A DNA stretch of 64,000 nt, from IMG/VR virus record IMGVR_UViG_3300045988_060114; one strand, written 5' to 3'. The notes under the pieces are model-generated. The model saw only the letters and a list, made by a program, of their open reading frames with translations, was not told where the DNA came from and did no database searches. The stretch is from a virus. This document shows, in pieces, positions 15,038 to 36,405 of this stretch (positions are counted from its first letter, which is position 1; each line of letters begins with the position of its first letter). Made by a program: the position numbers and the translations under genes.

Positions 15038-15144
15038 AAGCCTTTCTTTTATAAATCTGCTGCAAAGATAAGCATTTTTTTTGTTACTCGCAAGTTTTGG
15101 GTAACAAAATAGTAACAAAACTAACACGTATCTGATGTATAGGT

Positions 15145-18185: not shown

Positions 18186-18854
18186 ATGTTAGGAGCGTTA
18201 ATTGGGGCAGGTCTTGGACTTGCAAGCAGTATCGCTGGTGGTGTAGCTAACCGCAAGGCGAGACGTAAGCAGGAGCAGATGATAGCCCAGCAACAGAAAG
18301 AAAATCAGGCATGGTATGATAGAAAGTATAATGAAGACCCTACCAAACGTGCCGATACCGTTCGATTGCTCACTCAAATGCAGGAGCAAATCAAGAACAG
18401 AAACAAGGCTGCGAAGGGTAGACAAGCGGTGATGGGTGGTACAGAAGACTCCACTACTGCTGTGAAGGAGGCGAACAACAAGACTCTTGCTGATACCACC
18501 TCACAGATTGTAGCTGCAAATGATGCCCGAAAGGATAACATCGAGCAGCAGTATATGAACAGAAAGAACCAGTTACAGAACCAGCAGATGGGTATTGAAG
18601 CTGAGAAGGCTGCTGATACTGCCAATGCGGTTGCTGGTGTGGCTGGTACTGCTGCCAATATCGCTGCAACTATTGATAGTGGTGTTGGAGCAAAGAAGGC
18701 TCCGAACATGAATGTGACTCAGGAGCAGTTGGATGGTATCGCCAAGAATCCAAATGATGTTCTTGGCTTGAAGGCTAAAACTACTAGGTTGCCATCGCAA
18801 GGTGAACTGAATAGCCTTGGAGTGAAATTGCAAGAACAGAAAGTTAAAGCATAG
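18186..18854 (+). CDS. Gly/Ala-rich pilot/ejection-like virion protein (putative)
   Basis: N-terminal GALIGAGLGLASSIAGG, a Q/N-rich coiled middle and a second Gly/Ala-rich stretch. First gene of the giant-protein operon. Confidence 0.45.
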   Translation: MLGALIGAGLGLASSIAGGVANRKARRKQEQMIAQQQKENQAWYDRKYNEDPTKRADTVRLLTQMQEQIKNRNKAAKGRQAVMGGTEDSTTAVKEANNKTLADTTSQIVAANDARKDNIEQQYMNRKNQLQNQQMGIEAEKAADTANAVAGVAGTAANIAATIDSGVGAKKAPNMNVTQEQLDGIAKNPNDVLGLKAKTTRLPSQGELNSLGVKLQEQKVKA

Positions 18855-20057: not shown

Positions 20058-23000
20058 ATGGCAGAAAGACCATTATACACTTTATACAAGAATCTGAAAG
20101 CACAGAACTATGATGTGCCTGATGATTACAATAAGTTTGAGAGCGCCCTGACCAGAGAAGGAAAGGGCGGTGCAGATAACAGACACGCTATCTATGAGAA
20201 CTTGAAGGCTCAGAACTTTGATGTTCCTGATACTTATGAGCGTTTCTATTCTGCACTTTTTGAACCTCGTAGTAAGACTTCATCTAGAGCGAAGGGCGGT
20301 AGTGTTCCTTTGAGTGCTGCTGACCGTGCTCGTTTCAATGCTAGAACTGCGGAAATCTTGTCTAGTGCTAATAATGCGGTAAGACAAGCAAAGCGAAACA
20401 TTCAGACCAAACTGGGGCAAGCAAAGAAGTTTGATGGTGGCAGGGTTACTCAACGTCTAAAGAATCCTTTGCAGAATCAGAATGTACAGAAGAATGAGTT
20501 CAACTATAATGCCACAACTGGCAAGACTGGAACCTATACAACATCTGATGGAGTGGAGTTCGATAACGAGTATGATGCTACCCAGTATCAGAATAAGTTG
20601 GACGAGCAGGGGCAGCAGTATATCAATGCTGTAAATGCTGGTGAGATACCGTCTGCTTTAGATGTGCGTGACCAGAATGGCAACTACGACTTGCAGGAGA
20701 ATATTGGTAAGAATGGAACCTATCTCACTGAGGAGGGTGCTCAAAAGCAGTTTGATAAGAAACTGGCTGATGCCTATGCTCGCAAGAAGGAGATAGAAGC
20801 TGCTATAGCGGAAGACAATCGTCAGCATGGCAATCCTCTGCTCTCTTATGGTGCTAGTATTGGTTCAAGTAACGGAAGAAATGCTGAGCAGAGTGACTAT
20901 AGAAATAAGTTGGCAACCTCTCTATCTCTTGTTACTCAGCAGATTGGTGCGCTTGAAGCGGTGAAACAATACCCTACAAGTAGCTGGGGTGAGGATGCCT
21001 TGAAGGCTCTTGACAATACTGCCTTTACTGCCAAGACTTGGGATTTCGGTCTGACTGATTTTGCTACCATGGGGCAGATGGAACGTATCAAGACAAAGAT
21101 GGATAACAACATTCCTCTCTCTGGTTCTGATAAGATGCTCTTGAAGAGTAAACTGGGTGCGGATGCTGCTGCGGCTCTCGAAGATGAGAAGATGGGTAAT
21201 ATCTATCGCTGGACGAAGATTGCAGGGCAGAGTCTCCCATTTATGGCTGACTTCTTCCTGACTGGTGGCTATGGTGGTATTACCAAGGGCATCAGTCGTG
21301 GAGCCTTGAAGATTGCTGCTAAGTCTGGAATGGGCAAGGTGAGTGCTGCAATTTTGAAGAACACTGGTATCGTGGCTGGCGATGTAATCGGCTCGTATGC
21401 GATGGCTGGAACTGAACAGGCATTGAAGACTGGTGCAGACATCATGCAGCGACATCTAGGTAATCTGTATCAGGATGAGAAGGGCGATTATAAGTTCGGT
21501 ACATTTGACGAAAACGGAAACCTCCTGCATGAAGGTGGTGAGTCTATGGGTACTGCTCTCTATAAGGGGCTGACCTCTGCCATGGTGGAGAACTACACAG
21601 AGAAGTTGTTTGGTCACAACTATGGTATCAAGAAGGGTGCTGTCAACTTCATGGAGAAACATGGTATGAATGCTTCTGCTGAGTTCTTCAAGAATATCGG
21701 CAAGAGTGGTTGGTACACCAATTCTAAGAAGTGGATGGAGAAGTTTGGCATCAATGGTTTCGCTGAGGAAGTGATGGAGGAGGAAATTGGTATTCCTCTT
21801 CATGCACTGCTGGATGGTGATAGTAAGGTGAGCGACCTTCTTGATGCTAGACAACAACTTGACATTATTGGTGGTATGGCTATCTCTGTTGGTTCTATGT
21901 ATGCGATGGGTGCTGGCTCCCGACCAGTGAAGGGTGTGTACAATCGTGCTCAGTACTACCGATTCAGACACAAGTTGAACGTGGCTGATAGTGATGCACA
22001 GAACCTTATTGGCGATAACTGGGCAGACATCAAGGATAAGATTGACAATGCAACCAACGAGCAGATGGGTAGTGTACTAGCTGGCATTCTCCGTCAGAGA
22101 GATACAATGACCAAGGAACAGATTAATGCTGCTGTTAACTATGGTGTGAACCTGATGAAGATGCGTGGCTACAATATTGCCAAGACTTCTGAAATGAATG
22201 CAAGGGAGATTACCAATGAGCCTACAACTCCTGAGGAACAGCATCAAACGGATATTGATAACGCTTACTCTGAGGGGCATGATGCTGATGATGCAGACAA
22301 ACATGATATTCAGATTCAGCAGGAAGACCAGATGAAGACTCTTGCAGCAGCATTGGGTATCTCTGAGCAGCAGCTATCTGTTATGAGTGATGAGGAGTTG
22401 GAATCCTTAACTGGAAAGGATGATAAACTTGACCAAGCTATCTATGACTACCAGTTGTCTTCTGCTCGCTACCAAGGTGTGGTTGATGATGCACAAGACA
22501 AGGTTGACCTTGCTGCTCATCAGGCAGAACAACGTGTTGATATGTACACAGACCAGAGCCGTGGCTCAGTCCGTAACGCTACCATTAAGGCATCTGGAGG
22601 ACTGGAAGACTATGGTGTCTATATTATCAGTGGCAATATCGCTACTCATGATGATGGTACTATTGATGTAAGCAATAGTGATGATATGATTCTCTATTAT
22701 GACCCGACAACGAATAGTGTAGAACACGCTGATGCATTGATGTTCGCTGAACTGGGTGAGGAACTGCCTGCTGATGATGTGAAGGCTCAGGCGGTAGCTG
22801 ATGCAAAAGAGGTTGCTATCAAAGAAGTGGCTGGCATCATTGACGGAACAGTTGATGTTGGCTCCCAGTTCTTGGTGACTGATGCTGACGGAACGGAACA
22901 TACTTATGAGGTGCTTGCTGATTATGGTGATGGTACTGCTGCTATTTCTATTGATGGTAATGTGGTAGAGAATCCATATTCGCTTGCCGATTTGCAACAG

Positions 23001-26000
23001 ATGAAAGACTTGGAAGACAAGAAGAGATTGGAAACTGCTAAGGCTCAGCGTGAGCAGATAGAGAAGGAACGTGCTGAGCAGCAGAATCAGGAGACAGAAC
23101 AGACTCAACCTTCATTTGATTTCAATCAGATTCTTAATGACAATGGAAATGTTGTCATTGTTGATGTGCTGGATAAGGATGGCAATACTAAATATCCTGA
23201 CTCTAGATTGTTCCTTATTCGTGATACTGGTGCCAAGGCTAAGGTAGTTGAGTTGAAGAGTGATGGCACTATTGTTCCTCATGCTGTGAGCAAGAAGAAT
23301 GTGAGCATAATTACTTCAATGTCGCTTGATGAGTACAAGCAGGCTATGGCTGAATCCTCAATGATAGAGGATAATAGTGGAGAGAATAGAGGTGAGATAG
23401 AGGTGGAGACTCCGACAATAGAGGGCGAGACTGCTGCTCCTGCTGAGGAGACTGCTGCTCCTGAATCTGCTGAGACTCCTGCAACTGAACAGACTCCTGC
23501 TGCTCCTTCCATTACTCTTGAAGATGGAACCATCGTGCCTATGCTGGAGGATGGCAATCCTGACTTCACGAAGCTGACTGCCGCACAGACTGCTGAGTTG
23601 TATGACTCCCAGTTTGGTGAGGATGCAGATAGTATCGTATCTGGATATGTGTCTGATGCAAAGAAGGCACTCGACAAGGCTAGCAACATGACCGTGAAGG
23701 GTAAGACTTTCGTGGAACAGAAGGCTGCAAAGGATGCAAAGGAGAAGGCTATTGCTGATGCTCAGGCGGCTTATGACTCTGCTATCGCTATCCGTGATGC
23801 TTACAATGAGCGACAACTTGCCAAGGTGGAAGATACTGCTGAGGGTAGAAAGGAACTCATTGAGAAGGCAAGAAGAAAGTTTGCTCGCTTGAAGAGTGCA
23901 GTGAAGAATGATGCTGAGGCTGTAGCACAACTATATAAGGAGACTGTAGGCAGCTTGCTACATCGTCTGTATGATGGCACTGGCATTGACGTGACAGATA
24001 CGATTCCGCTTACTGCTGAGGAGTATGTGGCTAGTAATCTCGGTGCTCACTCTCTCAACTATGAGGGTACTGAGACAAGCAAAGGTGTTAAGCAAGAGAC
24101 TGGATTGAGTAGAGAAGACTTTGCCAAGACCCAGTTGCTCGCTGCTGATGGCAAGGGTACTACTATTGACAACCTCGTACATAGCTTGTGGGAGAATCGT
24201 CCATCTAACCTTGATTCACTCGACACTCAGAATATTCGCAATGCCTTGCTCAGCATAATCACTAGCGGTTTCAAGGCATCGGAAGCAAGAAATTACATTG
24301 AAAATCTCCGTATCGCTCAGGCTGAGAATATCCTTGAAGAGCAGAAGAAGGCGGCTGATAACGCTGCATTCGCTGAGGAGAAGACTGGGGAAGAGAACTC
24401 TGATGAGGAGAATGATGAGGAGAATGAGAAGATAAATGAGCAGACAAATGAGAATATAAATGCTCCTGAGGTTCCTGAGGATGCAACGGATGATACTCCT
24501 TTAGGCGCACAGCGTGATGAATCAGACCTTCCTTTCTCTGCTAAGGAGAATGGCAAGCAGCAGACAACTGCCGAGCGTGCTGCTGATGTAGAGAAGAATA
24601 AGGTGGATGATATGAAGGTCGTTGACAATATCGTGGGTGAAAAGACTCGAAAGGCTTTCGAGAGACTGGCTAAGATGATGGGTGCTGCCATTCAGTGGCA
24701 GTACTCTGACAAGTTGGGTAACGGCTGGATTCAGGAGACCAAGGATGCTGATGGCAACGTTCATCGTACCATCTTCATTACTCTTGACTCTTCTATCACG
24801 GAAGGTGCTCAGTTTATCTTCGGTCATGAAATGACTCACCAAATCAAGAATCTGAACCCTGCTGCATACAATGAGTTGACTCAGCTTGTGCTTGATACCT
24901 ATGGCTCTGATGCCTTCGACAAGGCGGTAGGTGAGACCATGCAAAGATATTCTGATGCTGGATTCTCTGGACGTGCTAGAGATTACTATGCTGAGGAGGT
25001 TGTTGCTGATGCGGTAGGTGAAATGATTCGTGACCTCAACTTGGCTCATACTCTCGCTATGAAGATGTCTCATCCTCTACTCGCTGCTATCCATGAGATA
25101 TTGCAGAAGATTAAGTTGGCATTCTTTGGCACTGAGTATAGCGATGTGACCAAGAACATCATCCGCTCCATTGAACAAGCCTACGTGAAGACTGCCAATG
25201 GGGAGGTGACAAACTCCGAGACTGGTGAAGATGTTTCCTTCTCTCTCCGTCAAAAGCCTGAACCTAAGAAGAAGGGCATCGGCTACAAGGTGTTCGTATT
25301 GAAGGATGGCAAACTCTATCCACCTATGGTAGCGAACCCTAATGGTGCTGCTACTCCAGTTGGTGTGTGGCTCGATGCTGATGCGGCTCCTATTGCAGGA
25401 GAAAGCAAGACTGGAAGACCTCAGGTTAAGCAGGGCGGCAAGGGAACACAAGGCGGTAGCGGTAAGTTAGCCTATAGACCAGGCTGGCATCTTGGTGTAG
25501 TGCCTTATGCTATCCAGTTTAACCGCAAGGATGCTGAGGGCAACAAGACTCTCTTCCCTAAGAACTTTGTCTTCGCTGAGGTGGAGTATGCTGCTGACGT
25601 TGATTATCAGGAGGAAGCTCGCCAAGAGGGTATCAATCCATCGGGCAAGTATCAGCATTCACTCGCTGGCTTGAAACATCTGCCTACTGATGGTTTCTAT
25701 ATGTATCGTACAAACCCGAACCCTGAGACTGACCCTTGGGTGATTACTGGTGCGATGAAGGTGAACCGTATCTTGACCAGAGCAGAGCAAGCGGAACTTG
25801 TGAAGAATGCTGGTCGTGAACCTCAGCAGATTCAGGAGGGCGATATTGTTACTGATGATGTTGTGAACAGCATCAATCAGGAGATAGCTGATGCTCCTAA
25901 GTTCTCGTTAAAGGTATATCATGGTAGCGGTGCTGACTTTACAGAGTTTGACTTCGACCACATGGGTGAGGGTGCTGGCTCCCAAGTATTCGGTTGGGGT

Positions 26001-29000
26001 GGCTACGTTACTTCATCGGAAGAGATAGGAAAAAGCTATGCTAATCTTTCAAGAGATTATGGCAGCAGAAACATATATAAGGGCGATATTCCGTTGACCA
26101 AGTTGGAAAAGGCTGCTTTGAGTTCATTCATTGAGAACAACAAGAATCATGAAGGGACATTCAAGGAAGGTGTTGCTGGTTCTATCGAGCGACAAAAGGC
26201 ATTGATTGCTAAGCATCCGAACAATCCTCTTTCTAATAGTATCAAGAAGAGAATTGAAGTATTGGAGGGTGCTATGCCTAAACTGGATAGTATCTCTTGG
26301 GATGATTTCGTTCCAAGTGGAAAGAACCTCTATGAGGTAGATATTCCTGAGGATAATGGCAGTAACTATCTGGAATGGGAGAAGAAACCATCTGATGAGG
26401 TTGCAACAAAGATAATTGAAGGTCTTTATGGCTTGGATGCTAAGACCCTTGATGATATGGCATCAAAGGATATTGTGTTCAGAACTCTGTTGTATGATTA
26501 CATCAAGAATGCAGACAAGGAGCAGATGATTCCACTCCTTGTGAAGACTCATGCTCTAACTAGGGAAACTACCTATGACAATGGAAATGTTGAGGATGAT
26601 ATACGATTTGTGTACAATCGTTTATCTAGATGGATGGGCAGTCAAAAGGCTGCAAGCCAGTTCCTATCTTCTCTTGGTTTTACTGGCATCAAGTACCCTG
26701 CTGGAACAATCATGGGCGGTGTTGAAGGAGACGAAATCAACTATGTTATCTTCAAACCTGAGGATATGAAGATTACAGAACATACCAAGTTCTCCATCAA
26801 GACCTATCATGGCTCCCAAGCATCATTTGACAAGTTCGACCACTCCTTTATGGGTAGCGGTGAAGGTGCTCAGGCTTACGGCTGGGGTACTTATGTGAGC
26901 GAAGTGGAAGGTATCGCCAAGGCTTATGCCAAGGCAAATGCAAAAAAGAATGCGCCTTCAAGACTGATGTATCAAGGTAAGCCTATGACGTATAAAACTC
27001 CATCAATTATCTATCAAGTTGCCCTTGATATGGATAAGTTTAATATTTCCGCAAAAGAGGCTATATCAAAGATGATAGATGCTGATGAGAAGAAACTTGC
27101 ATCCGTTGGCGACACCCCATTTGCGAAGATGAAAGCCAAACAAGTTCAAGATGAGTTGAAAGTTTTGAAAGATTTGAATCCTTCTGACTTCAAGATTAAT
27201 GAGGACTATGATACTGTCGCACAGGATTTGATAGATACAAAGTCTGGTCTTGATTTATTGGAGGATGAGTTGAAAGATGCAAAATCCTATGTAGATTTGT
27301 ACCAATCAAGACTTGATGAGGCTAAGGAAGAACTTTCAAAGGCAAAGGAAAGTGGCACTGGTTTAGGTGTTGATATGTATGAATCTGATGTTGAGTATTA
27401 TAGCGAACAGGTTAAAAGATATAAGCAGAGTATAAAAACTAAGGAAAGTGACATCAAAGATGTAAAAACTAAGGTTGACGCTTTGCAGAAGAAGTTGGAT
27501 TCCATGGAGAAACCACGCAACCTCTACTCTGTTGATATTCCTGATGATACTGGTCGCAACTACATCGGCTGGGATGAGCCTTTAGGTGCTGCTAAGATTA
27601 TGCGTCTGCCAAAGGTATTCAAGGCTGATGGCTGGGAGTACAAGAAGGTTGGTATGTATGATACTTACAAGATTGATGGTAACGAACATGAGGTTTGGCT
27701 TGAACCAACTTTGACTACTGGCAAGGAACTTTATAGAGATTTGACGAATGCCCTAGGTAGCGACAAGGCTGCAAGCGAATTTCTCTCCAAGGCTGGCTTT
27801 GTCGGTGTGAAGGTTATCGCTCAGCGTAATACTGGCGGCAACAAGGAAGGCAAGATGAACTATGTTATCTTTGATGAGAACAATGCTCAGATTACCAGTC
27901 ATACCAAGTTCTCGTTGAAGAAAGATGGCTTGACTCCTGAGATAGCAAATACTCCTGTAAATATTGTTGATGCTGATGAGGAACATGGCTTTAAGAACTA
28001 TGCTGAGGCAAGAGAATGGGCTAAGAAGAATATTGTTAGAACTTACAATGATGAAGAAACTGGTGGCAAGGGTGAGATTAATATCAGTAATACTGCTGTT
28101 GGTAAGTATTTGTCTGAAAAGGCAGTTAAGAAGAGTGCAAACAAAGATGTACACATGAGCGTTTTGAAGGTCTTGCCTTCTATACTTCGTGAGAGTGTAG
28201 ATGCTATTCAGCATGTTGACCGTAACAAGGTAGGAAATGAACGTAGTGAGGATTTTGGTGTCAATCCTGATGTTATGATACATCGTTGTTATGGTGCGGT
28301 GAATATAGGCGATAAGGTCTATGGTGTAAAGATTACTTTGAAAGAGAATGTAAGAACACACGAAAAAACAAAGCTATATAGCTATGAAGCAACAAAAATA
28401 GAGCTGCTGGACGGTCAAAGTGGAGACGTAGCTATGACCTCTCCCCGCAATTCCAACAACTCTATTACGGTTGCAAAGATAATAAAAGGTTTTGAAACTA
28501 CCAAGAAAAATGGCGAAAAGTTTTCATTGAAGGATGAAAAAACTCTTGCAGGAGTGCATAACATTACTGAGGAGAAACTGAGAAAGGCTTTGAAGCTGGG
28601 TGGATTTGCCAATCCTTCTTTGGCTGTGATTGATACCAACAAGACTGCTCACGACAACTTTGGAGAGATTTCCTTCATCGCTCCTTCTGCCCTTTTGGAT
28701 AAGCGTACTGGCAATACTGGCGGTACTTGGATAACTGATGCCTACACTCAACGTTATCCTTCCGTAGAGCGAGAAATGAGTGAAAAAGGGTATCGGAAGT
28801 TTGAAGACTGGGTTGATAGCCTTGATTACCCAAGTGTAGCTAAGGCTGAGATTGAGAGACAGGCAAAGGATGCCCTGAGCGACAATAATGCTCCTGCTTG
28901 GGAGTTGATGTACTTGAAGGAAAAGGGTATTGATATTAAGGAGTATGATTCTAGAATTGATTATCGCTGGAAAGAGATTATCAGTGACCATCCTACTGCT

Positions 29001-32000
29001 GAGGATATTCTGAATAGTATGAAGACTGACCCTGAACTGAATAAAAAGGTTACAAGTCTGGCTAAGCATGCCATCATCCATCCTACTTGGGAAAAGGTTT
29101 CTTTGGAGGTAAGAAGAAAGATGTATAAGGAGACTGGCGTTAAGGCTAGCCCTATCAATCCACAAGTAAGAAAACAGACTAAGGAAATCTTTGAGCGTGA
29201 CTATGCGCCAACCTTGCTTAACAAGGACGGCAGTCCAAGAAAAAAAGATGTGAAGAAGGTTGTTGGGGATATTGTGAAGGAGCACAACGATACCAAGAAG
29301 TATAACTTCTATCTGTCTAAGGTGAAGGCTAGTAATTACGTCAACAAGAATGGTCTTTATGATGATTACATCAGATGGCAGGAGAACAAACTGGATGAGT
29401 TCGGAACGAAGAACCGTATCTTCCGTGGCTATACTAAGGATGGTTCCCGAAAGTATGTGCCTGAGACTCTTGAAAATGTTTCAAAGGCTATGAGGGAAGA
29501 AGCAGATGGGCAGACCAATGGAAGTGAATATACCTCGTTTGGTAGCTTTATCGCAAAGTTGGCTAGTCGTGTTGATTCTACAGACGAAATGCGTGCCAAC
29601 AAGGATAAGTTGTCTTCTAATAAGGATAAGGAAGAGTTTTACGAGAAATGGAATGGGGTTTATTATGACCTTGCCAAGTTCTTGTATAATGATGTGTTTT
29701 ATGGCGAGCAGAGACTTCACGATATTGTATTGCAGTCTGACCCTAAGAAGTATGCCAAGAAAGAATATGGCATTACCCTTACTCCTACCTTTATGAAGAA
29801 ACTGGATGCCTTGAAGAATGCAGTACAGACAGAGTTGAAGAGTGCGTACTTTGAGACTAAGTACAACAGACCTCTACGCCTTAATGAGTTTGCTGCTGCT
29901 GTGGTTCCTGATAACTTGGGCGAAGATGTGCGCAAGGGTATAGAGAATGCTGGCTTACCAATGTATGACTACGACCCGAATAAGGAAGGTGACCGCAGTC
30001 GTGCCTTCAATGAAGCTATAAATAGCAGCGACAATATCCGATTCTCTCTTGCTGGCGAGCGTGGTGCGGCTGCTGCTGACAAGGCAGAGGAGCGTACTGC
30101 TCGTATGGATAATCTCTCTGTGGCTCGCAAGATGGAAGAGGAGAAGAAGGATGCCAAGGCAATCAAGATGGCTACTGGTTGGGAGCGTGGTGCTGATGGC
30201 AAGTGGAGATACGAAATGCCTGATGCCAAGATAAAGGACACGATGGACGTAGGCGGTGGGCACATCGTTAAGCGTTACGAGGATGATATGCTCTGGAATG
30301 GTGGTAAACTATCTAATGTGATTGATGCACCTGAATTATTTAAGGCTTATCCCCAGTTGAAAGATGTGCGTATTGATACGGATGCCATTATGAACGATAT
30401 GCCTTCAAATGGTGAATATAATTCAAAGACCAACACCATTACCATTCATGCTGATGAGTTGAAATATATGAATGGCATATTGAATCACGAGATTCAGCAC
30501 GTTATTCAGGATATTGAAGGCTTTGCCAAGGGCGGTAGTCCTAGATTGGTTAGAGGTGAGGTCAAGAAGAGGTTTGATGAGGTCACCAAACAGATTAAGC
30601 AGCTACGTGCAGAAGGTAAGGAAGATGAAGCAAAGACTCTGATTGAGAAGAACAGAGGTCTTTATAATGCTTATCAGAAGAATGATGATTTCAATAGTTA
30701 CAAGTCTCTTGCTGGCGAGGTGGAAGCTCGTAACGTATCTGCCCGATTGAACATGACTCCTGAGGAGAGAAGAAAGACTCTCGCTGAATCTACTGAGGAC
30801 GTGGCTCGTAAAGACCAGATTTTCTTGGGCGTGGGCGATGTGTCCTTCTCTCTACGTGATATGGCTGACGGAAAGGAGAGTGGGGCGGCTGATATGGCTG
30901 AGGATTTGAAGAGTCTGAACACTCCTGATGAGGTGGATGATGCTATCAAGACTGCCATTGATGATATGCCGAGCGGTTGGCAGATGGCTAACAAGAAGAT
31001 GATTCATATTGCTCAGGCTCTGGGCGAGAACCGCAAGGCAGAGATTTCTGGCGAGGAACCTAAGTTCTCCCTGAAGGCTGGCACTCTCATTAAGGCTGGA
31101 ACCTACTTTAGTGGTGGCGGTCTTGTTGAGGAAGGCTTGAAGGGTATCATCGACCCAGTGGTGGCAGTGGAGTATGACGAGAAGATAAGCGGTGTATATC
31201 GCAACAACTTCGGGCAGCACATTGTTACTGCTGATGTTCGTGATGTAGACCCTAAGGAGTTGGTGAAGCAGATAGATGGTGAGGTGGAGTACTTCCATGC
31301 CAGCCCAGTCTGCAAGAACTACTCTCAGGCAAAGAGTAACCACGCAGAGGTGGAACTTGACAAGGAGACTGCTGCTAGTACTGCCGAGTTTATCAATGCC
31401 GTTAAGCCAAAGGTGGTGACTATTGAGAACGTGAAGGGGTATAAGGATTCGGAAGCGATGAAGACTATTACCGATGCTCTGGATGCCAACGGCTATACTT
31501 GGGATGCAGATGTGTATAACGCTGCTGACTATGGCGGCTACACAAACCGAGAGAGATTGATTGTCCGTGCGGTTCGTGATGGCAAACTTCCTGCCAAGCC
31601 AAAGAAGATGGCACGCAAGAGTGGATGGTATGAAGCTGTGGCTGATATTATCCCGACCCTGACCGAGAAGAAGAATGGCGTGGCTCCTTGGATGGATATT
31701 CGCTTGAAGGCTGATGGCATTGACTGGAGAAACATTGACAAGCCATTATATGTGATGGGTAGTGCCTATGCTGACGGAAAGATTCCTCATGCCTTCGCTG
31801 ACGAACTGCTGCCAACACTCCGAACCAAGAGCGGTGATGTAATTGTGATGCCTGATGGTAAGGTATATCGTGCCATGGGCAGAGTGCTCGCTAGAGTATC
31901 AGGAGTGAGCGATGATTACAAGATGCCATTCTCCGAGAATCTGAGCCATACCATCATCGGCAACGGAATACCTACCCAGTTGACCGAGCATGTTATTGCT

Positions 32001-35000
32001 CCTCTGCTTACTGGCTCTGACCCTAAGTTTAGCATCCGTACCTATCATGGTACTGGTGCTAGCTTCGACAAGTTCGATTTTAGCCACATGGGTGAAGGCG
32101 AAGGTTCACAAGCATTTGGCTGGGGTGGTTATGTTACTAACTCTAAGGAAATTGCTGAGGACTACACAAGACGTGCCAAAATGAGAAAAAATAATGGCGG
32201 CTTTGAATTTGTGACAGATTTGTCTGACAGCAACAAAGATATGGTAAGACACTATATCTATAAATATAAAGATGTAGATAAGGGATTGGATGCTATGAGA
32301 AAAGACCTTTCTTCTGCTCTAGAAATGTTCCCTGATGATGATAATTTGAAGGAACTTAGCGATATTCTTGCAAAGAAGAATGAGGAAATAGCTGTTCCTG
32401 ATGATATTGCTTATCTTTACGATGTGGATATTCCTGATGATAATGGAGATTATCTTGACTGGGAGAATAAATTGAAAAAATCTCATTTGAACAAGGTAAA
32501 TAAGGAGTTGGTTAGAATTGGCAAGGAACCTATTGAGGCCATTTATCCAAGTCGTGTTGATGGTAAGGTAAGAGGTCAAGACCTATACGATGAACTTTCC
32601 TCTATGCTTGGTTCTAAAGAAGCAGCTAGTAAGTTGTTAAGTGATGCTGGCTTTGTTGGTATTAAATACCCTGCTGGAACCATCTTTGGAGGTGCAAAGA
32701 AAGATGATTACAACTACGTGATATTCGATGAGAACAATGCCAATATCGTGGGTAATACCAGATTCTCCTTGCGCTATGACCAGTTTGAGCATGACCTGAA
32801 CCAGTGGAAGAAGGATAACAACCTGCCAAAGGATGCACAGCGACCAACCATCCCACAACGCAACGCTGGTGAGAGTGCCGTTGACTTCCTGAAGAGAGTG
32901 GACGAGTATCGCAAACAGATGGCTCTGTGGAAGACTGCTCCAACCTACGAGCAGCATCTTTTGAGTGATGATACTGCCCTTGGAGAGTTTAACCGAGAGT
33001 TGCAGCGTGGTTCTGTACTCAAACGTATCGCCTTCCAAGATAGTATGCTGGCTATCCGCAAGGCTCAGGAAGCTATCATGAAGGAAGTGGGTGTTGACCG
33101 CCTGAATATGGCTGAGGATGCCTATACTGCCGAGAACAGAAGTCACGGCAAAGGAAAGAACGAGTTTGAGGAGTACAACAATGAGTTCTTGCAGCCATTG
33201 AGAAAGGCTTATCATCAGATGAAGAAGATACTGGGTGACAGCTATGATAATGTCCGTATCTACATGATGGCTAAGCATGGCTTGGAGCGTGATGCTCAGA
33301 TGGCTTTCAAGAAGTCACTGGATGCAGACTTTGAGGACGTGGCTCAGAGAAGTGCGGCATACAGGGCTTACAAGGGCGATATGAACCGTATTACCAATGA
33401 TAGCGATTTGGAGTTTGGCAGAGTGGATTTCAATACTTGGAGACAGAGAGATAACGCACTTAGAACGAAATACTCTCCTTCCTATATGGACTATCGCTAT
33501 GATGAGAATGGTATCGCCTACGATTACTCAGGCTTATCGGCTCTCTTCGGTGGCTCAGACTTTGAGGAAGCTGCCCACAAACTGGTAAGGGATATTGAGA
33601 GTAGTCATGTAGCTGAGGTGCAAGACCTCTGGAATGCTACGAATGCGGCTACAAAGAAGATTCTCCGTGATGGCTATAAGGCTGGCATGATGAGCAAAGA
33701 TACTTATCTGTATGTGCGTGATATGTATAGCCATTATATTCCTCTCCGTGGATGGGATGGCACTACTGCCGACCAAGTATGGGACTATGTAGGTGGTGGC
33801 AAGGGTGCGTTCAATCAGACATTGAAGACCGCACACGGACGTACCTCTATAGCTGATGACCCTATCGCTTACATCGAGAATATGGCAGAGAGTGGAATCC
33901 TGCTGAACAACAAGAACTGGGTGAAGCAACACCTGATGCTCTTGGCTCAGAATCATCCAACCTCTCTTCTCACCCTGAGCAAGGCTTGGTACGTGAAGAG
34001 TACGGATGCCAACGGCAACGAGGAGTGGATTCCTGCTACACCTCAGATTACTTCTCAGATGAATAGCAATCAGGTGAAGGCTACCATTGATGCTTTCGAG
34101 CAGAAGATGGAGAATATGGCTCAGACTGGCGATGCTACCCAGCAGCGAGAAGGCTTGAACATAGCCTATCCTCAGACTCATAGCGAGGAGAGAGAACATG
34201 AGGTAAGAGTGATGAAGGATGGCGAGGAGTATGTTATCTATGTGAATGGTGACCCGCAGTTGGCTCAGGCGATGAACAATACTAGAGCACACCGAGTGAG
34301 AGAGATTCAGAGCGGCAAACTGGATAGGGCTGCTGCTTGGTTGGGCAGAAAGATGGCTGCTGCCTATACCAGTCTTTCACCTCTCTTCATTCCTTCCAAC
34401 TACTTCCGAGACCTGACCATGACGCTGGCATCTACCGCTATTCGTGAGGATGGCAGATACAACTATCTGCTAAGAAAGAATCTTGCTACCTCTTGGAATC
34501 TCGGTTTCATGCTGAGAGACTATCAGAACGGCAAGTTGAGAGATAAGGTAAACAACGGAAACGCTACTCCAAAGGAACAGATGTTCTATGACTTCATGAT
34601 GAATGGTGGCGAAACTGGCTTTGTCTCTTCGCTTGATGTGGAAGACTTGAAGAAGAAATTCAAGAATGACTTGAAGGATTTGGATAGATGGAAGGCGAAC
34701 CCAGTAAAGGTAGGGCACACCATCATGGATAGTATCGAGTTCCTGAACAGAATGATTGAGGATAGTAACCGATTTGCGGTTTACATGACCTCTATTCAGT
34801 ATGGACGTTCTATTGATGAGGCTGTGAATGATGCCAAGGACGTAACATTGAACTTCAACCGCAAGGGTACTGGCGAATATGGCTGGCAGATGATTAGAAA
34901 CCTCTATCTCTTCATCAACCCAGCAGTACAGAGTTTACAGACATTGGGTGCGCTTGCCAAACATCATCCGTTCAAGTTCACGGCTGTTACTGCATCGTGG

Positions 35001-36353
35001 TTGGCGAGTGGTGTGCTGGTTCCTATCGTCAACGCTGCCCTGATGAGTCTGTTGGGCGGTGATGATGATAAGGATAAGTACTGGCAGTTCACCAAGTGGG
35101 ATAGACGAAACAACCTGATTATGTGGGTTCCGTTTACTCATGAGTATGTGAAGATTCCGCTTGCTCAGGAGTTCCGTGCCTTCTATGGAGTAGGCGATAT
35201 GATTGCATCCAAGATGATGGGTGGAGAGTTGGCTGAGGAAAGTTGGAGCCAGTATGCAGAAGACTTGCTCGGTCAGGTGGTGGATATGCTTCCGCTCGAC
35301 CCTACTGGCTATGATGGCAATATTGCGGTCAGTCTGATGCCGAATGCTATTCGCCCAGTTTTTGAGTTGGCTTTCAATGTTGACTTCACTGGCAAGCCAT
35401 TATTCAAGGAGACAGAGTATAACAAGTATGACCCGAACTTTACCAAGGCATACGTGGGCACTCCTGATTGGTTGGTACGTGCATCCAAGATGGTTAACTC
35501 AATCGGAAACGACTATCCTGATGTGCAGCAGAATAGCATTGATGCTTTCGGTGACCCAAGGTACAATCTGAATAACCCTGCCGTGGTTGACCATGTATTG
35601 TCTTCTTACCTCGGTGGTGCTTACACCATGGGCAGTCAGGTGCTCGGTTTGCTTACCAAGTCACTCAATGACCGGAAGGAAATCAAGGTGGCTGATATTC
35701 CATTGGTAAGCAAGTTTGTCAGCAACCCTGATGATAGACCAGTCAGCAAAAAGCAGGGAGATGAGTTCTGGGATAAGAAGGAATACTACGACCGTGCTTC
35801 CAACACAATTAGCAAGTTGAAGAAACAAGCTAAGATTGATGGAGATTATTCCCAGCTTGAACGTTTCTATGGCTCTGAGGAATACAAGACTTACAAGTTG
35901 TATGAGAAAGATGTAAAAGATTACAAGGAGGCAAGAAAAAAGGAACGTGCTGAGGAGAGCGGTGATGAGTACAGACCACACCAACTTAATGCTGAGGACA
36001 TCTATAATAATCATGCTACCCCTATGGATGAGTTTGAGGATATGAAACTGAAACAACTCTTTGAAAAGTTAAACTCATTTAAGACTAGATATGATGCTAT
36101 TGTAGATAATGCCCCAAATGAGAGCGATGGCTACTACAACACCAACAAGACAGCCATTGATGCCATTGACGAGATTTCCCTTGATAAGCAGGAGATTTCC
36201 GAATTGAAGAAAGGTTTCTTGGATGATGGTAAGGATGCCTACAACGCTGAGGACATGAAGCAGATTCGTGACCTGAGAAAGAAGATTCTTGCCGTGCTGG
36301 AGAAGGCTAACAAGGTGGTTGTGGCTAACCAGAAGGCGAAGACTGATAAGTAA
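20058..36353 (+). CDS. giant polyvalent multi-domain protein (5431 aa), probably virion-packaged and ejected
   Basis: Uninterrupted 16,296 nt ORF. It contains HEMTH and HEIQH zincin motifs, three YHG[ST]...NYVIF modules, a complete C5-MTase motif set and hydrophobic segments near both ends. Confidence 0.9.
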   Translation: MAERPLYTLYKNLKAQNYDVPDDYNKFESALTREGKGGADNRHAIYENLKAQNFDVPDTYERFYSALFEPRSKTSSRAKGGSVPLSAADRARFNARTAEILSSANNAVRQAKRNIQTKLGQAKKFDGGRVTQRLKNPLQNQNVQKNEFNYNATTGKTGTYTTSDGVEFDNEYDATQYQNKLDEQGQQYINAVNAGEIPSALDVRDQNGNYDLQENIGKNGTYLTEEGAQKQFDKKLADAYARKKEIEAAIAEDNRQHGNPLLSYGASIGSSNGRNAEQSDYRNKLATSLSLVTQQIGALEAVKQYPTSSWGEDALKALDNTAFTAKTWDFGLTDFATMGQMERIKTKMDNNIPLSGSDKMLLKSKLGADAAAALEDEKMGNIYRWTKIAGQSLPFMADFFLTGGYGGITKGISRGALKIAAKSGMGKVSAAILKNTGIVAGDVIGSYAMAGTEQALKTGADIMQRHLGNLYQDEKGDYKFGTFDENGNLLHEGGESMGTALYKGLTSAMVENYTEKLFGHNYGIKKGAVNFMEKHGMNASAEFFKNIGKSGWYTNSKKWMEKFGINGFAEEVMEEEIGIPLHALLDGDSKVSDLLDARQQLDIIGGMAISVGSMYAMGAGSRPVKGVYNRAQYYRFRHKLNVADSDAQNLIGDNWADIKDKIDNATNEQMGSVLAGILRQRDTMTKEQINAAVNYGVNLMKMRGYNIAKTSEMNAREITNEPTTPEEQHQTDIDNAYSEGHDADDADKHDIQIQQEDQMKTLAAALGISEQQLSVMSDEELESLTGKDDKLDQAIYDYQLSSARYQGVVDDAQDKVDLAAHQAEQRVDMYTDQSRGSVRNATIKASGGLEDYGVYIISGNIATHDDGTIDVSNSDDMILYYDPTTNSVEHADALMFAELGEELPADDVKAQAVADAKEVAIKEVAGIIDGTVDVGSQFLVTDADGTEHTYEVLADYGDGTAAISIDGNVVENPYSLADLQQMKDLEDKKRLETAKAQREQIEKERAEQQNQETEQTQPSFDFNQILNDNGNVVIVDVLDKDGNTKYPDSRLFLIRDTGAKAKVVELKSDGTIVPHAVSKKNVSIITSMSLDEYKQAMAESSMIEDNSGENRGEIEVETPTIEGETAAPAEETAAPESAETPATEQTPAAPSITLEDGTIVPMLEDGNPDFTKLTAAQTAELYDSQFGEDADSIVSGYVSDAKKALDKASNMTVKGKTFVEQKAAKDAKEKAIADAQAAYDSAIAIRDAYNERQLAKVEDTAEGRKELIEKARRKFARLKSAVKNDAEAVAQLYKETVGSLLHRLYDGTGIDVTDTIPLTAEEYVASNLGAHSLNYEGTETSKGVKQETGLSREDFAKTQLLAADGKGTTIDNLVHSLWENRPSNLDSLDTQNIRNALLSIITSGFKASEARNYIENLRIAQAENILEEQKKAADNAAFAEEKTGEENSDEENDEENEKINEQTNENINAPEVPEDATDDTPLGAQRDESDLPFSAKENGKQQTTAERAADVEKNKVDDMKVVDNIVGEKTRKAFERLAKMMGAAIQWQYSDKLGNGWIQETKDADGNVHRTIFITLDSSITEGAQFIFGHEMTHQIKNLNPAAYNELTQLVLDTYGSDAFDKAVGETMQRYSDAGFSGRARDYYAEEVVADAVGEMIRDLNLAHTLAMKMSHPLLAAIHEILQKIKLAFFGTEYSDVTKNIIRSIEQAYVKTANGEVTNSETGEDVSFSLRQKPEPKKKGIGYKVFVLKDGKLYPPMVANPNGAATPVGVWLDADAAPIAGESKTGRPQVKQGGKGTQGGSGKLAYRPGWHLGVVPYAIQFNRKDAEGNKTLFPKNFVFAEVEYAADVDYQEEARQEGINPSGKYQHSLAGLKHLPTDGFYMYRTNPNPETDPWVITGAMKVNRILTRAEQAELVKNAGREPQQIQEGDIVTDDVVNSINQEIADAPKFSLKVYHGSGADFTEFDFDHMGEGAGSQVFGWGGYVTSSEEIGKSYANLSRDYGSRNIYKGDIPLTKLEKAALSSFIENNKNHEGTFKEGVAGSIERQKALIAKHPNNPLSNSIKKRIEVLEGAMPKLDSISWDDFVPSGKNLYEVDIPEDNGSNYLEWEKKPSDEVATKIIEGLYGLDAKTLDDMASKDIVFRTLLYDYIKNADKEQMIPLLVKTHALTRETTYDNGNVEDDIRFVYNRLSRWMGSQKAASQFLSSLGFTGIKYPAGTIMGGVEGDEINYVIFKPEDMKITEHTKFSIKTYHGSQASFDKFDHSFMGSGEGAQAYGWGTYVSEVEGIAKAYAKANAKKNAPSRLMYQGKPMTYKTPSIIYQVALDMDKFNISAKEAISKMIDADEKKLASVGDTPFAKMKAKQVQDELKVLKDLNPSDFKINEDYDTVAQDLIDTKSGLDLLEDELKDAKSYVDLYQSRLDEAKEELSKAKESGTGLGVDMYESDVEYYSEQVKRYKQSIKTKESDIKDVKTKVDALQKKLDSMEKPRNLYSVDIPDDTGRNYIGWDEPLGAAKIMRLPKVFKADGWEYKKVGMYDTYKIDGNEHEVWLEPTLTTGKELYRDLTNALGSDKAASEFLSKAGFVGVKVIAQRNTGGNKEGKMNYVIFDENNAQITSHTKFSLKKDGLTPEIANTPVNIVDADEEHGFKNYAEAREWAKKNIVRTYNDEETGGKGEINISNTAVGKYLSEKAVKKSANKDVHMSVLKVLPSILRESVDAIQHVDRNKVGNERSEDFGVNPDVMIHRCYGAVNIGDKVYGVKITLKENVRTHEKTKLYSYEATKIELLDGQSGDVAMTSPRNSNNSITVAKIIKGFETTKKNGEKFSLKDEKTLAGVHNITEEKLRKALKLGGFANPSLAVIDTNKTAHDNFGEISFIAPSALLDKRTGNTGGTWITDAYTQRYPSVEREMSEKGYRKFEDWVDSLDYPSVAKAEIERQAKDALSDNNAPAWELMYLKEKGIDIKEYDSRIDYRWKEIISDHPTAEDILNSMKTDPELNKKVTSLAKHAIIHPTWEKVSLEVRRKMYKETGVKASPINPQVRKQTKEIFERDYAPTLLNKDGSPRKKDVKKVVGDIVKEHNDTKKYNFYLSKVKASNYVNKNGLYDDYIRWQENKLDEFGTKNRIFRGYTKDGSRKYVPETLENVSKAMREEADGQTNGSEYTSFGSFIAKLASRVDSTDEMRANKDKLSSNKDKEEFYEKWNGVYYDLAKFLYNDVFYGEQRLHDIVLQSDPKKYAKKEYGITLTPTFMKKLDALKNAVQTELKSAYFETKYNRPLRLNEFAAAVVPDNLGEDVRKGIENAGLPMYDYDPNKEGDRSRAFNEAINSSDNIRFSLAGERGAAAADKAEERTARMDNLSVARKMEEEKKDAKAIKMATGWERGADGKWRYEMPDAKIKDTMDVGGGHIVKRYEDDMLWNGGKLSNVIDAPELFKAYPQLKDVRIDTDAIMNDMPSNGEYNSKTNTITIHADELKYMNGILNHEIQHVIQDIEGFAKGGSPRLVRGEVKKRFDEVTKQIKQLRAEGKEDEAKTLIEKNRGLYNAYQKNDDFNSYKSLAGEVEARNVSARLNMTPEERRKTLAESTEDVARKDQIFLGVGDVSFSLRDMADGKESGAADMAEDLKSLNTPDEVDDAIKTAIDDMPSGWQMANKKMIHIAQALGENRKAEISGEEPKFSLKAGTLIKAGTYFSGGGLVEEGLKGIIDPVVAVEYDEKISGVYRNNFGQHIVTADVRDVDPKELVKQIDGEVEYFHASPVCKNYSQAKSNHAEVELDKETAASTAEFINAVKPKVVTIENVKGYKDSEAMKTITDALDANGYTWDADVYNAADYGGYTNRERLIVRAVRDGKLPAKPKKMARKSGWYEAVADIIPTLTEKKNGVAPWMDIRLKADGIDWRNIDKPLYVMGSAYADGKIPHAFADELLPTLRTKSGDVIVMPDGKVYRAMGRVLARVSGVSDDYKMPFSENLSHTIIGNGIPTQLTEHVIAPLLTGSDPKFSIRTYHGTGASFDKFDFSHMGEGEGSQAFGWGGYVTNSKEIAEDYTRRAKMRKNNGGFEFVTDLSDSNKDMVRHYIYKYKDVDKGLDAMRKDLSSALEMFPDDDNLKELSDILAKKNEEIAVPDDIAYLYDVDIPDDNGDYLDWENKLKKSHLNKVNKELVRIGKEPIEAIYPSRVDGKVRGQDLYDELSSMLGSKEAASKLLSDAGFVGIKYPAGTIFGGAKKDDYNYVIFDENNANIVGNTRFSLRYDQFEHDLNQWKKDNNLPKDAQRPTIPQRNAGESAVDFLKRVDEYRKQMALWKTAPTYEQHLLSDDTALGEFNRELQRGSVLKRIAFQDSMLAIRKAQEAIMKEVGVDRLNMAEDAYTAENRSHGKGKNEFEEYNNEFLQPLRKAYHQMKKILGDSYDNVRIYMMAKHGLERDAQMAFKKSLDADFEDVAQRSAAYRAYKGDMNRITNDSDLEFGRVDFNTWRQRDNALRTKYSPSYMDYRYDENGIAYDYSGLSALFGGSDFEEAAHKLVRDIESSHVAEVQDLWNATNAATKKILRDGYKAGMMSKDTYLYVRDMYSHYIPLRGWDGTTADQVWDYVGGGKGAFNQTLKTAHGRTSIADDPIAYIENMAESGILLNNKNWVKQHLMLLAQNHPTSLLTLSKAWYVKSTDANGNEEWIPATPQITSQMNSNQVKATIDAFEQKMENMAQTGDATQQREGLNIAYPQTHSEEREHEVRVMKDGEEYVIYVNGDPQLAQAMNNTRAHRVREIQSGKLDRAAAWLGRKMAAAYTSLSPLFIPSNYFRDLTMTLASTAIREDGRYNYLLRKNLATSWNLGFMLRDYQNGKLRDKVNNGNATPKEQMFYDFMMNGGETGFVSSLDVEDLKKKFKNDLKDLDRWKANPVKVGHTIMDSIEFLNRMIEDSNRFAVYMTSIQYGRSIDEAVNDAKDVTLNFNRKGTGEYGWQMIRNLYLFINPAVQSLQTLGALAKHHPFKFTAVTASWLASGVLVPIVNAALMSLLGGDDDKDKYWQFTKWDRRNNLIMWVPFTHEYVKIPLAQEFRAFYGVGDMIASKMMGGELAEESWSQYAEDLLGQVVDMLPLDPTGYDGNIAVSLMPNAIRPVFELAFNVDFTGKPLFKETEYNKYDPNFTKAYVGTPDWLVRASKMVNSIGNDYPDVQQNSIDAFGDPRYNLNNPAVVDHVLSSYLGGAYTMGSQVLGLLTKSLNDRKEIKVADIPLVSKFVSNPDDRPVSKKQGDEFWDKKEYYDRASNTISKLKKQAKIDGDYSQLERFYGSEEYKTYKLYEKDVKDYKEARKKERAEESGDEYRPHQLNAEDIYNNHATPMDEFEDMKLKQLFEKLNSFKTRYDAIVDNAPNESDGYYNTNKTAIDAIDEISLDKQEISELKKGFLDDGKDAYNAEDMKQIRDLRKKILAVLEKANKVVVANQKAKTDK
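24534..25238 (+). other. giant protein module with zincin motif HEMTH
   Basis: FIFGHEMTHQIKN, with His-Glu-x-x-His at 24825-24839. The module is bounded by FSAK (24534) and FSLR (25239). Confidence 0.55.
25902..26789 (+). other. giant protein paralogous module A1
   Basis: Starts KFSLKVYHGSGADFTEFDFDHMGEGAGSQVFGWGGYVT and ends FLSSLGFTGIKYPAGTIMGG...NYVIFKPEDMKI. Confidence 0.8.
26790..27908 (+). other. giant protein paralogous module A2 (with coiled-coil insert)
   Basis: Starts KFSIKTYHGSQASFDKFDHSFMGSGEGAQAYGWGTYVS and ends FLSKAGFVGVKV...NYVIFDENNAQI. Confidence 0.8.
30042..30845 (+). other. giant protein module with zincin motif HEIQH (polyvalent-protein metallopeptidase-like)
   Basis: ILNHEIQHVIQDIEGFAKGG...SLAGEVEARNVSAR, with HEIQH at 30486-30500. 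Confidence 0.6.
31077..32027 (+). other. giant protein embedded DNA C5-methyltransferase domain
   Basis: FSGGG (31107), SPVCKN (Cys codon 31311-31313), ENVKGY (31425), TNRERLIV and GNGIPTQL, in canonical order. Confidence 0.75.
32028..32762 (+). other. giant protein paralogous module A3
   Basis: Starts KFSIRTYHGTGASFDKFDFSHMGEGEGSQAFGWGGYVT and ends LLSDAGFVGIKYPAGTIFGG...NYVIFDENNANI. Confidence 0.8.
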
Positions 36354-36366
36354 TATATATATGACT

Positions 36367-36405
36367 ATCCCCTGAAAGTGTTAGGCTTTCGGGGGATATT
36401 TACTT
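36367..36405 (+). terminator. rho-independent terminator after the giant gene
   Basis: ATCCCCTGAAAG (36367-36378) pairs with CTTTCGGGGGAT (36386-36397), including one G-U pair, and is followed by a T-rich tail. Confidence 0.6.

Follow-up and report, generated by a model that had tools for sequence, protein, structure and literature searches.

A 5431-residue polyvalent phage protein with standardised module junctions in a T7-type ejection operon

Polyvalent proteins were defined in 2017 by computational means only, and the same study (Iyer et al. 2017) predicted that they are processed by zincins (PMC5512222). The zincin-cleavage idea remained without test because no cleavage site was known, and our literature search returned no described cleavage motif for polyvalent proteins. 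Here, we report on a single gene of 5431 codons located at 20058..36353 (plus strand) of the IMG/VR virus record IMGVR_UViG_3300045988_060114, i.e., a DNA stretch of 64,000 nucleotides (nt) that we call the window. Its product (the giant in the following) qualifies as polyvalent by the definition of Iyer et al. 2017 (PMC5512222), since ART-PolyVal, LPD3, PBECR5, LPD23, DNA_methylase and LPD38 all score over their Pfam gathering thresholds. Giant polyvalent virion proteins are already known. New, as far as we found, are a standardised peptide at the junctions, linked to a clade-specific zincin (zincin1), and a combinatorial array of cassettes.

The closest cultured relatives of the giant are BS-TP4 gp3 (5391 amino acids (aa)), BKO1-TP3 gp55 (5553 aa) and BF1-TP2 gp68 (3633 aa), which are annotated as 'hypothetical' or 'DarB-like'. 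Like the window phage, their phages are temperate Bacteroidota gut phages, and the paper that reports them gives the giant gene no discussion (PMC12694917). They share with our locus the three-gene layout and both protein ends (24-33% identity), i.e., only residues ~240-1290 and ~4290-5290 of the giant can be aligned, where the N-terminal region is 24-26% identical to BS-TP4 gp3 and BKO1-TP3 gp55 and the C-terminal region 31-33% identical to the Bacteroides phage giants. In contrast, their centres are unrelated and unalignable, and they possess neither zincin1 nor the junction motif. BS-TP4 (L001 26961-37477) and BKO1-TP3 (L002 1-8319) also encode a diversity-generating retroelement (reverse transcriptase) beside a second giant gene of ~2640 aa.

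More distant is gp47 of the Shiga toxin phage phi24B (vb_24B_48, 2807 aa). It is likewise polyvalent with a metallopeptidase domain, has a homologous C-terminal region including LPD38 (BLASTP E 2e-29 with residues 4292-5118 of the giant; phrog_616) and is preceded by genes for a 421-aa protein and small Gly-rich membrane proteins. On the other hand, it is half the size, belongs to a phage of a proteobacterial host, carries the modules LPD5, LPD1 and MuF-C, is not matched in BLAST by the N-terminal family region and contains one motif match but no junction array. A 2026 preprint reports that phi24B gp47 (LPD5, LPD1, LPD38, MuF-C peptidase) is abundant in virions and invisible in the cryo-electron microscopy map, and proposes it to be an encapsidated ejection protein. 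The 'DarB-like antirestriction' giants of ~4500 aa (Bcep22 gp75, JC1 gp69 and those of Ralstonia phages) are also polyvalent and encoded in podovirus morphogenesis modules, and the Burkholderia and Ralstonia phage giants have the C-terminal region in common with ours (residues 4543-5271 align with Ralstonia phage Heva gp07, BLASTP E 6e-36). They differ in their helicase/methylase-type core (a HepA-type region in JC1 gp69) and in lacking the zincin1 signature and the junction motif (0 matches in Heva); no N-terminal homology was detected. For the Burkholderia phage JC1, mass spectrometry found gp69 (4515 aa), gp68 and gp67 in purified virions, and in phage PTXU04 a 2198-aa polyvalent protein is essential for infection.

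By function, the giant resembles P1 DarB, a large virion-packaged protein that is delivered with the DNA, pre-empts restriction and contains a DNA methylase (PMC5512222), and the initial annotation of the window had named DarB as the classic example of such a protein. However, DarB combines LPD36 with an EcoKI/TaqI-like N6-adenine methylase and a superfamily 2 (SF2) helicase, and its phage, the myovirus P1, uses a separate Dar system for packaging. When the giant was scanned with Pfam over its full length (E<=0.01), no N6-adenine methylase, SF2 helicase or LPD36 was reported, and its only methylase is of the C5 type (PF00145). The giant is therefore not a DarB homologue, and we reject the public label 'DarB-like antirestriction' as a statement of homology. 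The N4 virion RNA polymerase (vRNAP, 3500 aa) is comparable in being packaged in a podovirus, ejected ahead of the DNA and equipped with a zincin domain of the metallopeptidase (MPTase) type (PMC5512222), but it has one main activity (RNA polymerase) and no cassette array. The T7 gp14/gp15/gp16 ejectosome corresponds to our operon in gene order, in the sizes of the first two genes and in the gp14-family first gene, and the expected role would be the same, i.e., internal proteins that exit the capsid and bridge the cell envelope. T7 gp16 (1318 aa, PMC8954989) is, however, about four times shorter, while the giant carries effector enzymes. Neither sequence nor fold similarity to T7 gp16 nor a transglycosylase domain was detected in the giant by Pfam, PDB phmmer or Foldseek. 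As a mere analogy, with no homology claimed, its layout also recalls the multifunctional autoprocessing repeats-in-toxin (MARTX) toxins of Vibrio. These are proteins of 3500-5300 aa with conserved translocating ends, a strain-variable central effector mosaic and an internal protease that frees the effectors; the protease is of the cysteine type and becomes active with inositol hexakisphosphate, and the toxins have glycine-rich repeats, type I secretion and eukaryotic targets. Pfam scans of the giant, which were not aimed at MARTX, reported no MARTX-type domain (glycine-rich repeats, cysteine protease).

On balance, we lean towards reading the giant as an ejection protein in the gp16 position that is at the same time a self-processing, MARTX-like effector polyprotein. 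Its modules are as follows.

20058..36353, plus strand: giant polyvalent protein, probably internal to the virion, 5431 aa (ORF, Pfam, homology)
20073..20258, plus strand: two tandem N-terminal repeats LYxxLKAQN[YF]DVPDxYxxFxSAL (aa 6-31 and 44-67; read in the sequence)
20745..24047, plus strand: conserved N-terminal family region (aa ~230-1330; phmmer)
24501..25238, plus strand: zincin1 module (aa 1482-1727, HEMTH at 1590), candidate processing metallopeptidase (alignment)
25239..25901, plus strand: C2 module (aa 1728-1948), opens with FSLR (phrog_30118, E 1.9e-35)
25902..26789, plus strand: ART-PolyVal module 1 (aa 1949-2244), opens with FSLK (PF18760, E 1.2e-10, 42.8 bits; cluster C0)
26790..27908, plus strand: ART-PolyVal module 2 (aa 2245-2617), opens with FSIK (PF18760, E 2.7e-9, 38.4 bits; cluster C0)
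27909..28520, plus strand: LPD3 module (aa 2618-2821), opens with FSLK (PF18798, E 3.6e-11)
28521..30041, plus strand: PBECR5 predicted RNase with C-terminal extension (aa 2822-3328), opens with FSLK (PF18814, E 6.2e-19)
30042..30845, plus strand: LPD23 and zincin2 module (aa 3329-3596, HEIQH at 3477), opens with the variant FSLA (LPD23, E 7e-13)
30846..31064, plus strand: linker module of 73 aa (aa 3597-3669), opens with FSLR (cluster C4)
31065..32027, plus strand: C5 cytosine DNA methyltransferase (aa 3670-3990), opens with FSLK (PF00145, E 1.8e-29)
32028..32762, plus strand: ART-PolyVal module 3 (aa 3991-4235), opens with FSIR (PF18760, E 4.3e-5, 24.7 bits; cluster C0)
32763..36350, plus strand: conserved C-terminal region (aa 4236-5431), opens with FSLR (LPD38, PHROGs, BLASTP)
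34971-35066, plus strand: hydrophobic helix (aa 4972-5003; hydropathy)
35073-35708, plus strand: LPD38 (aa 5006-5217; Pfam E 1e-23, 84.8 bits at a cut-off of 27)

Most modules that the initial annotation had read from the letters are recovered by the Pfam profiles, which confirm the polyvalent domain set. The domain spans are aa 1951-2050, 2248-2358 and 3994-4041 for ART-PolyVal, 2649-2767 for LPD3, 2826-2968 for PBECR5, 3339-3392 for LPD23, 3684-3980 for DNA_methylase and 5006-5217 for LPD38. That is, its three YHG[ST] modules are ART-PolyVal domains, of which copies 1 and 2 exceed the PF18760 cut-off of 31.2 bits; copy 3 falls below it but is a paralogue by clustering. The full C5-methyltransferase domain was also correctly recognised: the PF00145 match covers profile positions 7-319 of 324, and the motifs FSGGG, PVC, ENV, NRER and GNGIP are legible at aa 3684-3975. 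The same holds for the duplicated N-terminal motif, for the Gly-rich hydrophobic stretch (aa ~394-460, within the conserved N-terminal region) and for the C-terminal transmembrane segment, which is the single strong hydrophobic segment and lies immediately before LPD38. A match to LPD14 at aa 541-624 is sub-threshold (E 6.5e-5, 23.4 bits, cut-off 27). The PBECR5 module is 33.5% identical to residues 1753-2286 of BF1-TP2 gp68.

Pfam gave no match for the C2 module (221 aa). It is widespread and highly conserved, with 60-80% identity among otherwise different polyvalent proteins, and contains a GGKGTQGGSG loop as well as a YRPGWH motif. C2 also forms the N-terminal domain of many proteins of ~900 aa, several of them with MuF_C, and occurs, too, on bacterial contigs that exceed 1 Mb.

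The boundaries between these modules are marked by one short peptide. The pattern F-S-[LIVM]-[RK] occurs 9 times in the giant, compared to 0.27 expected occurrences and a maximum of 4 in 500 shuffles. Together with the further variant FSLA this gives ten sites (aa 1728-4236), every one at a module boundary, and 186 unique contexts yield the junction consensus [TP]-[KR]-F-S-[LI]-[KR]. An unbiased scan also returned KFSLK as the most over-represented reduced 5-mer, while no other real ORF in the six frames of the 64-kb window contains the motif. The Pfam domain proper typically starts 12-60 aa downstream of the motif, whose flanks exceed the protein average in polarity and stay below it in hydrophobicity. 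Breakpoints of the mosaic centre fall at the motif: of 221 internal alignment ends, 33% are at most 5 aa away from one, compared to 3.6% expected. A recombination signal at the DNA level is ruled out, since the junction codons vary at all five positions and both TCN and AGY codons are used for the serine; what is constrained is thus the peptide and not the DNA.

We then related the motif to the zincin modules. Exactly two HExxH motifs are present in the giant, i.e., HEMTH at aa 1590 and HEIQH at aa 3477. Among 13 aligned family members (20-57% identity), zincin1 shows an invariant G-H-E-x-x-H and, ~55 aa downstream, E..xD..G; in 10/13 of them the module terminates in [FL]SLR. A homologue search with zincin1 alone returned just 12 matches, mostly fragments. 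For zincin2, HE.QH.IQ..EGF and GEVE.RNV are conserved in homologues spanning the module. In homologues with 20-64% identity, both modules retain the HExxH and the acidic ligand that follows it.

For 51 family giants, we defined a zincin1 signature ([FLIVM][GA]HE[ML]xH at aa ~1200-2000) and scored the junction motif as [KRS][FYLKM]S[LI][KR]. At least two motif matches are present in 17/18 giants with the signature but in 0/33 without it (Fisher p 1e-12, which overstates independence because the association is phylogenetically confounded). All motifs are C-terminal to zincin1, and in 11/18 giants the first one follows 132-144 aa past the HExxH, i.e., at the end of the zincin1 module, while zincin2 is optional among the family giants. 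This is the layout expected of a polyprotein protease that acts in cis, and it makes the 2017 prediction of zincin processing concrete. That the junctions are cut by zincin1 is nevertheless a tentative proposal, to which we attach slightly less than half of our confidence: cleavage, the identity of the protease and its timing are deduced from this arrangement.

Several boundaries in giants without zincin1 (P0312, P0309, P0394, P0275) look different and consist of an acidic run followed by [LIVM][FY]R[DA], e.g., EEEEELYRADEDE or DDELFRDGD. The enrichment is at most marginal, with 7 occurrences in P0312 compared to 2.1 expected (shuffle maximum 6) and no enrichment in the other members, and the pattern may be a different junction convention.

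Comparing the module content of related phages reveals conserved ends and a variable centre. In a set of 80 IMG/VR relatives, the C-terminal regions share 91-99% identity while the centres are mosaic. Cutting the proteins at the junction motif resulted in 572 modules, which form 26 clusters and 71 distinct architectures among 81 proteins. C2 is present in 70 related loci and the C5 methylase in 75 loci, while LPD3 is rare (only 3 loci). The 73-aa linker (C4) alternates with a 32-aa version (module cluster C5), and the relatives carry further cassettes that the window does not have, i.e., InPase, PBECR1, LPD13, MuF_C and a second ART-PolyVal type. That polyvalent proteins can be mosaic is already known from Helicobacter jhp1044 (PMC5512222); notable here is how far this goes on an almost fixed backbone. 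Some relatives have tiny in-frame remnants between two junctions, namely a 33-aa module in L016 and L076, 15 aa in L038 and 22 aa in L024. The remnant FSLKVYHGSGAEENNTNYVIFKPEDMRITEHTK consists of the start and the end of an ART module, whose middle is lost. From their sequences, such remnants look like recombination scars between paralogous cassettes.

The following course of events would combine these observations. The giant would be made late, packed in the capsid with the gp14-like and gp15-position proteins and expelled through the tail upon infection. Its N-terminal ~1300 aa and C-terminal ~1200 aa would serve packaging, envelope crossing and membrane insertion, where the N-terminal repeats and region may act in packaging or tunnel formation and the C-terminal region, with one transmembrane helix and LPD38, may insert in the membrane. 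The central ~2750 aa would be independent effectors that act against host defences and on the incoming DNA, i.e., three ADP-ribosyltransferase-like domains, the RNase-like PBECR5, the C5 methylase, LPD3, LPD23 and C2. The C5 methylase might shield the incoming DNA from restriction, and the ART and PBECR5 modules might disable host factors. Zincin1 (HEMTH 1590) would recognise [KR]-F-S-[LI]-[KR], cut its own C-terminal end first and then each junction, such that the polyprotein becomes free effectors, either inside the capsid or after delivery. Uniform junctions would permit the recombinational exchange of modules and with it a combinatorial effector repertoire. In its strongest form, i.e., that a clade-specific zincin1 between the structural N-terminal part and the cargo frees eight or more anti-defence enzymes from one injected chain, with any cassette swappable without loss of processing, we consider this idea more tentative still than the cutting itself.

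A number of results weigh against a self-processing ejection protein. Zincin1 has no match in Pfam, NCBIfam, PHROG or PDB, and its profile finds only designed helical proteins or bundles in the PDB. The match of zincin2 to the DUF6782 metallopeptidase is weak and below threshold (E 0.031). The initial annotation had called two zincin modules; of this, the conserved HExxH...E motifs stand, while neither module has a Pfam or NCBIfam match above threshold or a match to a PDB sequence or fold. Structure prediction of single modules with AlphaFold2 (AF2) was of limited use: the LPD23-zincin2 model is poor with a predicted local distance difference test (pLDDT) score of 54 and had no significant Foldseek match, and the C-terminal model, mainly helical with a mean pLDDT of 72, retrieved nothing from the PDB at E<=0.001 (best E 0.32), i.e., neither has a PDB fold match and the latter shows no likeness to the solved T7 gp16. 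In the weak LPD23-zincin2 model, which includes three junctions, the junction segments are below pLDDT 50, which may be taken as a hint only. Furthermore, the zincin1 carriers are mostly nearer relatives (30-56% N-terminal identity). The motif of the ART modules overlays the first beta-strand of other ART-PolyVal domains, and a related R[FY]x[FL][IV]GE before LPD23, with its aromatic-x-hydrophobic sequence, belongs to the N-terminus of that domain in distant homologues, such that part of the motif conservation may be structural. Stand-alone C2 proteins start with ...GLGSIRTKK and thereby retain S-I-R at their own N-terminus though no cleavage is needed. Finally, giant virion proteins can work uncut, as exemplified by N4 vRNAP, which is packaged unprocessed despite its MPTase domain (PMC5512222).

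The last three points are those expected if the giant is packaged, ejected and functional as one uncut chain. The junction peptide would then have a structural or docking role, e.g., as a short strand that starts a module, as a contact to a chaperone or the capsid interior, or as a spacer against misfolding. What speaks against this is that one and the same pentapeptide precedes at least 9 unrelated folds, usually at the given distance from the domain and within polar flanks. A generic linker also predicts something other than a motif that is limited to zincin1 carriers, always downstream of zincin1 and with its first copy at a fixed distance. We regard an uncut chain as unlikely, though as the most probable of the rival readings.

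Alternatively, the junctions could be processed by another protease (zincin2, a capsid-maturation protease or a host protease) with zincin1 being an effector on host proteins. The second conserved HExxH module of the giant would fit, and an effector role of MPTase domains is also considered possible by Iyer et al. 2017. But zincin2 is lacking in the motif-rich giants P0272, P0264, P0260, P0258 and P0255, no prohead-protease family was found among the scanned ORFs, which are only part of the window's ORFs, and a host protease leaves the confinement of the motif to zincin1 carriers unexplained. This renders a different protease improbable in our assessment, and zincin1 stays our candidate for the processing.

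While the cleavage is tentative, the virion link of the giant is better founded. To delimit the family, residues 230-1329 were searched with phmmer against 1.84e9 (1.84 billion) representatives, clustered at 50% identity. The N-terminal region is found in 475 clusters at E<=1e-3 (215 of them at E<=1e-30), invariably as an N-terminal match and mostly in proteins of 3000-6743 aa. The giant had been described as unusually large; its 5431 aa are typical of this family. No PHROG or PDB (phmmer) match was obtained for the N-terminal region and no PDB (phmmer) match for the C-terminal one, and NCBIfam provided none. The doubled N-terminal motif is also present at the extreme N-terminus of the distant members P0253, P0259, P0265, P0275, P0312 and P0394. 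It is ~25 aa long, persists in family members at only 27-49% identity, and may be a capsid-targeting or portal-binding signal.

The C-terminal region matches phrog_14770 (E 1e-142) and phrog_616 (E 6e-27), where the latter is assigned to the giants of Shiga toxin (Stx) phages on the strength of Stx-phage matches. The giant thus combines LPD38 with homology to a virion protein. It likewise has all features of the unnamed family of BS-TP4 gp3-like giants, i.e., the repeats, the N-terminal region, a variable centre, the LPD38 end, and a small and a ~400-aa gene upstream. The combination of structural/ejection and effector roles suggested by the initial annotation is supported by true homology to proteins found in virions (phi24B gp47; JC1 gp69). 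A packaged ejection-plus-effector protein is what we consider highly probable; the mass spectrometry concerns the homologues, from which the packaging of the giant itself would follow.

This is in accordance with the gene neighbourhood, which consists of the following features.

18186..18854, plus strand: gp14-like ejection (internal virion) protein of 222 aa that starts with a hydrophobic Gly-zipper helix (PF24072)
18858..20027, plus strand: basic K/Q/E-rich protein, 389 aa, in the gp15 position (synteny)
36366-36398, plus strand: intrinsic-terminator-like hairpin (stem of 14 bp, T tract), 13 nt past the giant's stop

In podovirus ejection operons, a gp14-like gene (~200 aa) adjoins gp15 (431-982 aa), which is followed by the larger gp16 (PMC8954989). 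The product of 18186 matches PF24072 (T7_gp14) with E 2e-6 and 28.3 bits (cut-off 27) over profile positions 5-176 of 187 and has a hydrophobic segment at aa 1-22. It is 53% identical to BKO1-TP3 gp57, which is equally placed upstream of the BKO1-TP3 giant gene. The product of 18858 has no match in Pfam, PHROG or NCBIfam, and PHROGs gave none for the 18186 product either. The 18858 product is similar to BKO1-TP3 gp56 and BS-TP4 gp2 (31-34% identity, E ~5e-14), which are equally placed. By size and synteny, it may be a gp15-like protein. Gaps of only 3 and 30 nt separate 18186, 18858 and the giant gene, which agrees with the initial view of one operon, as does the hairpin with the 'strong terminator' assumed there. 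The order small/medium/giant, on one strand and with the gp14-family match, places the giant gene in the gp16 position of a T7-type ejection operon, such that the annotation as a pilot-protein operon fits the published podovirus layout. The same order is repeated in BS-TP4, BKO1-TP3, BF1-TP2, phi24B (small membrane proteins, 421 aa, 2807 aa) and JC1 (196, 510 and 4515 aa).

One might still think of a non-virion, intracellular anti-defence polyprotein of the infected or lysogenic cell, given that the phage is temperate (integrase, repressor-like gene) and that the packaging of the giant itself is derived from homologues. Yet its gene lies directly downstream of one of the T7 gp14 family, in a tightly packed block on one strand closed by a terminator, and both phi24B gp47 (a C-terminal homologue) and JC1 gp69 (same DarB-like/LPD38 family) are abundant in virions. 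We rate this possibility as slightly more improbable than that of a different protease and retain the giant as a packaged protein.

The window further encodes a large terminase, a portal, a tail fibre, an SU10-type major capsid protein, a tyrosine integrase, an endolysin and a repressor-like protein. The capsid type, that of the short-tailed phage SU10, and the gp14-family match point to a podovirus-like phage, and among the scanned ORFs (part of those in the window) no tube, sheath or tape-measure family was found. The earlier statement that no tape-measure protein is visible thus holds for the scanned ORFs. Genes for an integrase and a repressor-like helix-turn-helix (HTH) protein are located at 13874-15127 and 40728-41783 (both minus strand), and related sequences (L084 and L086) reside on Prevotella contigs of more than 100 kb. 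Given the integrase, the repressor-like HTH and these contigs, the phage is temperate and was probably sampled as a prophage in some assemblies; its tail is probably short. The closest genomic matches are in Prevotella assemblies, namely a 102-kb contig (92% identity) and a 122-kb contig (76%), and NCBI holds fragments annotated from Prevotella pectinovora. Beside the tail-fibre gene, 43198-46281 (minus strand) encodes a 1027-aa protein with a CotH kinase-like domain (Pfam E 1.6e-7), which is unusual in a tail-associated protein.

The size of the gene raises the question whether the ORF is real, a concern already voiced in the initial annotation. It is a single ATG-started ORF with zero internal stops, as had been claimed, and the reading frame is open over the entire 10-kb upstream flank in ~75/80 related IMG/VR contigs. 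The representative library contains a 5452-aa protein that is 93% identical to the giant, and the three cultured Bacteroides phages have syntenic ORFs of the sizes given above. That several genes were joined by misassembly or annotation has a negligible probability: a word-indexed protein collection yielded family pieces of at most ~2085 aa only, but an open frame in ~75 independent contigs, full-length library proteins of 4800-6700 aa and three cultured genomes rule out an assembly chimera. The contrast between these short pieces and the representative library, where full-length proteins of 4000-6700 aa are found, may be one reason why the family has been little noticed; fragmented gene calls on short contigs probably hide it in routine annotation.

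For polyvalent proteins, this locus and its relatives offer a falsifiable pair, i.e., one protease module and one pentapeptide that marks the boundaries. Without cleavage, the giant remains a well-documented representative of phage proteins of 3000-6700 aa, a family that is very large and has hardly been described. If zincin1 does cut at the junctions, this would be the first defined cleavage code for polyvalent proteins and make the giant a phage counterpart of MARTX toxins and viral polyproteins, with a plug-and-play arsenal that is combinatorial at the population level (71 architectures in 81 genomes). New anti-defence enzymes could be drawn from the locus, which also provides a natural scaffold for bringing chosen protein cargo into Bacteroidota. 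Abundant Prevotella phages of the human gut would carry an injected cocktail that is reshuffled among near-identical backbones, which bears on the arms races between gut phages and their hosts.

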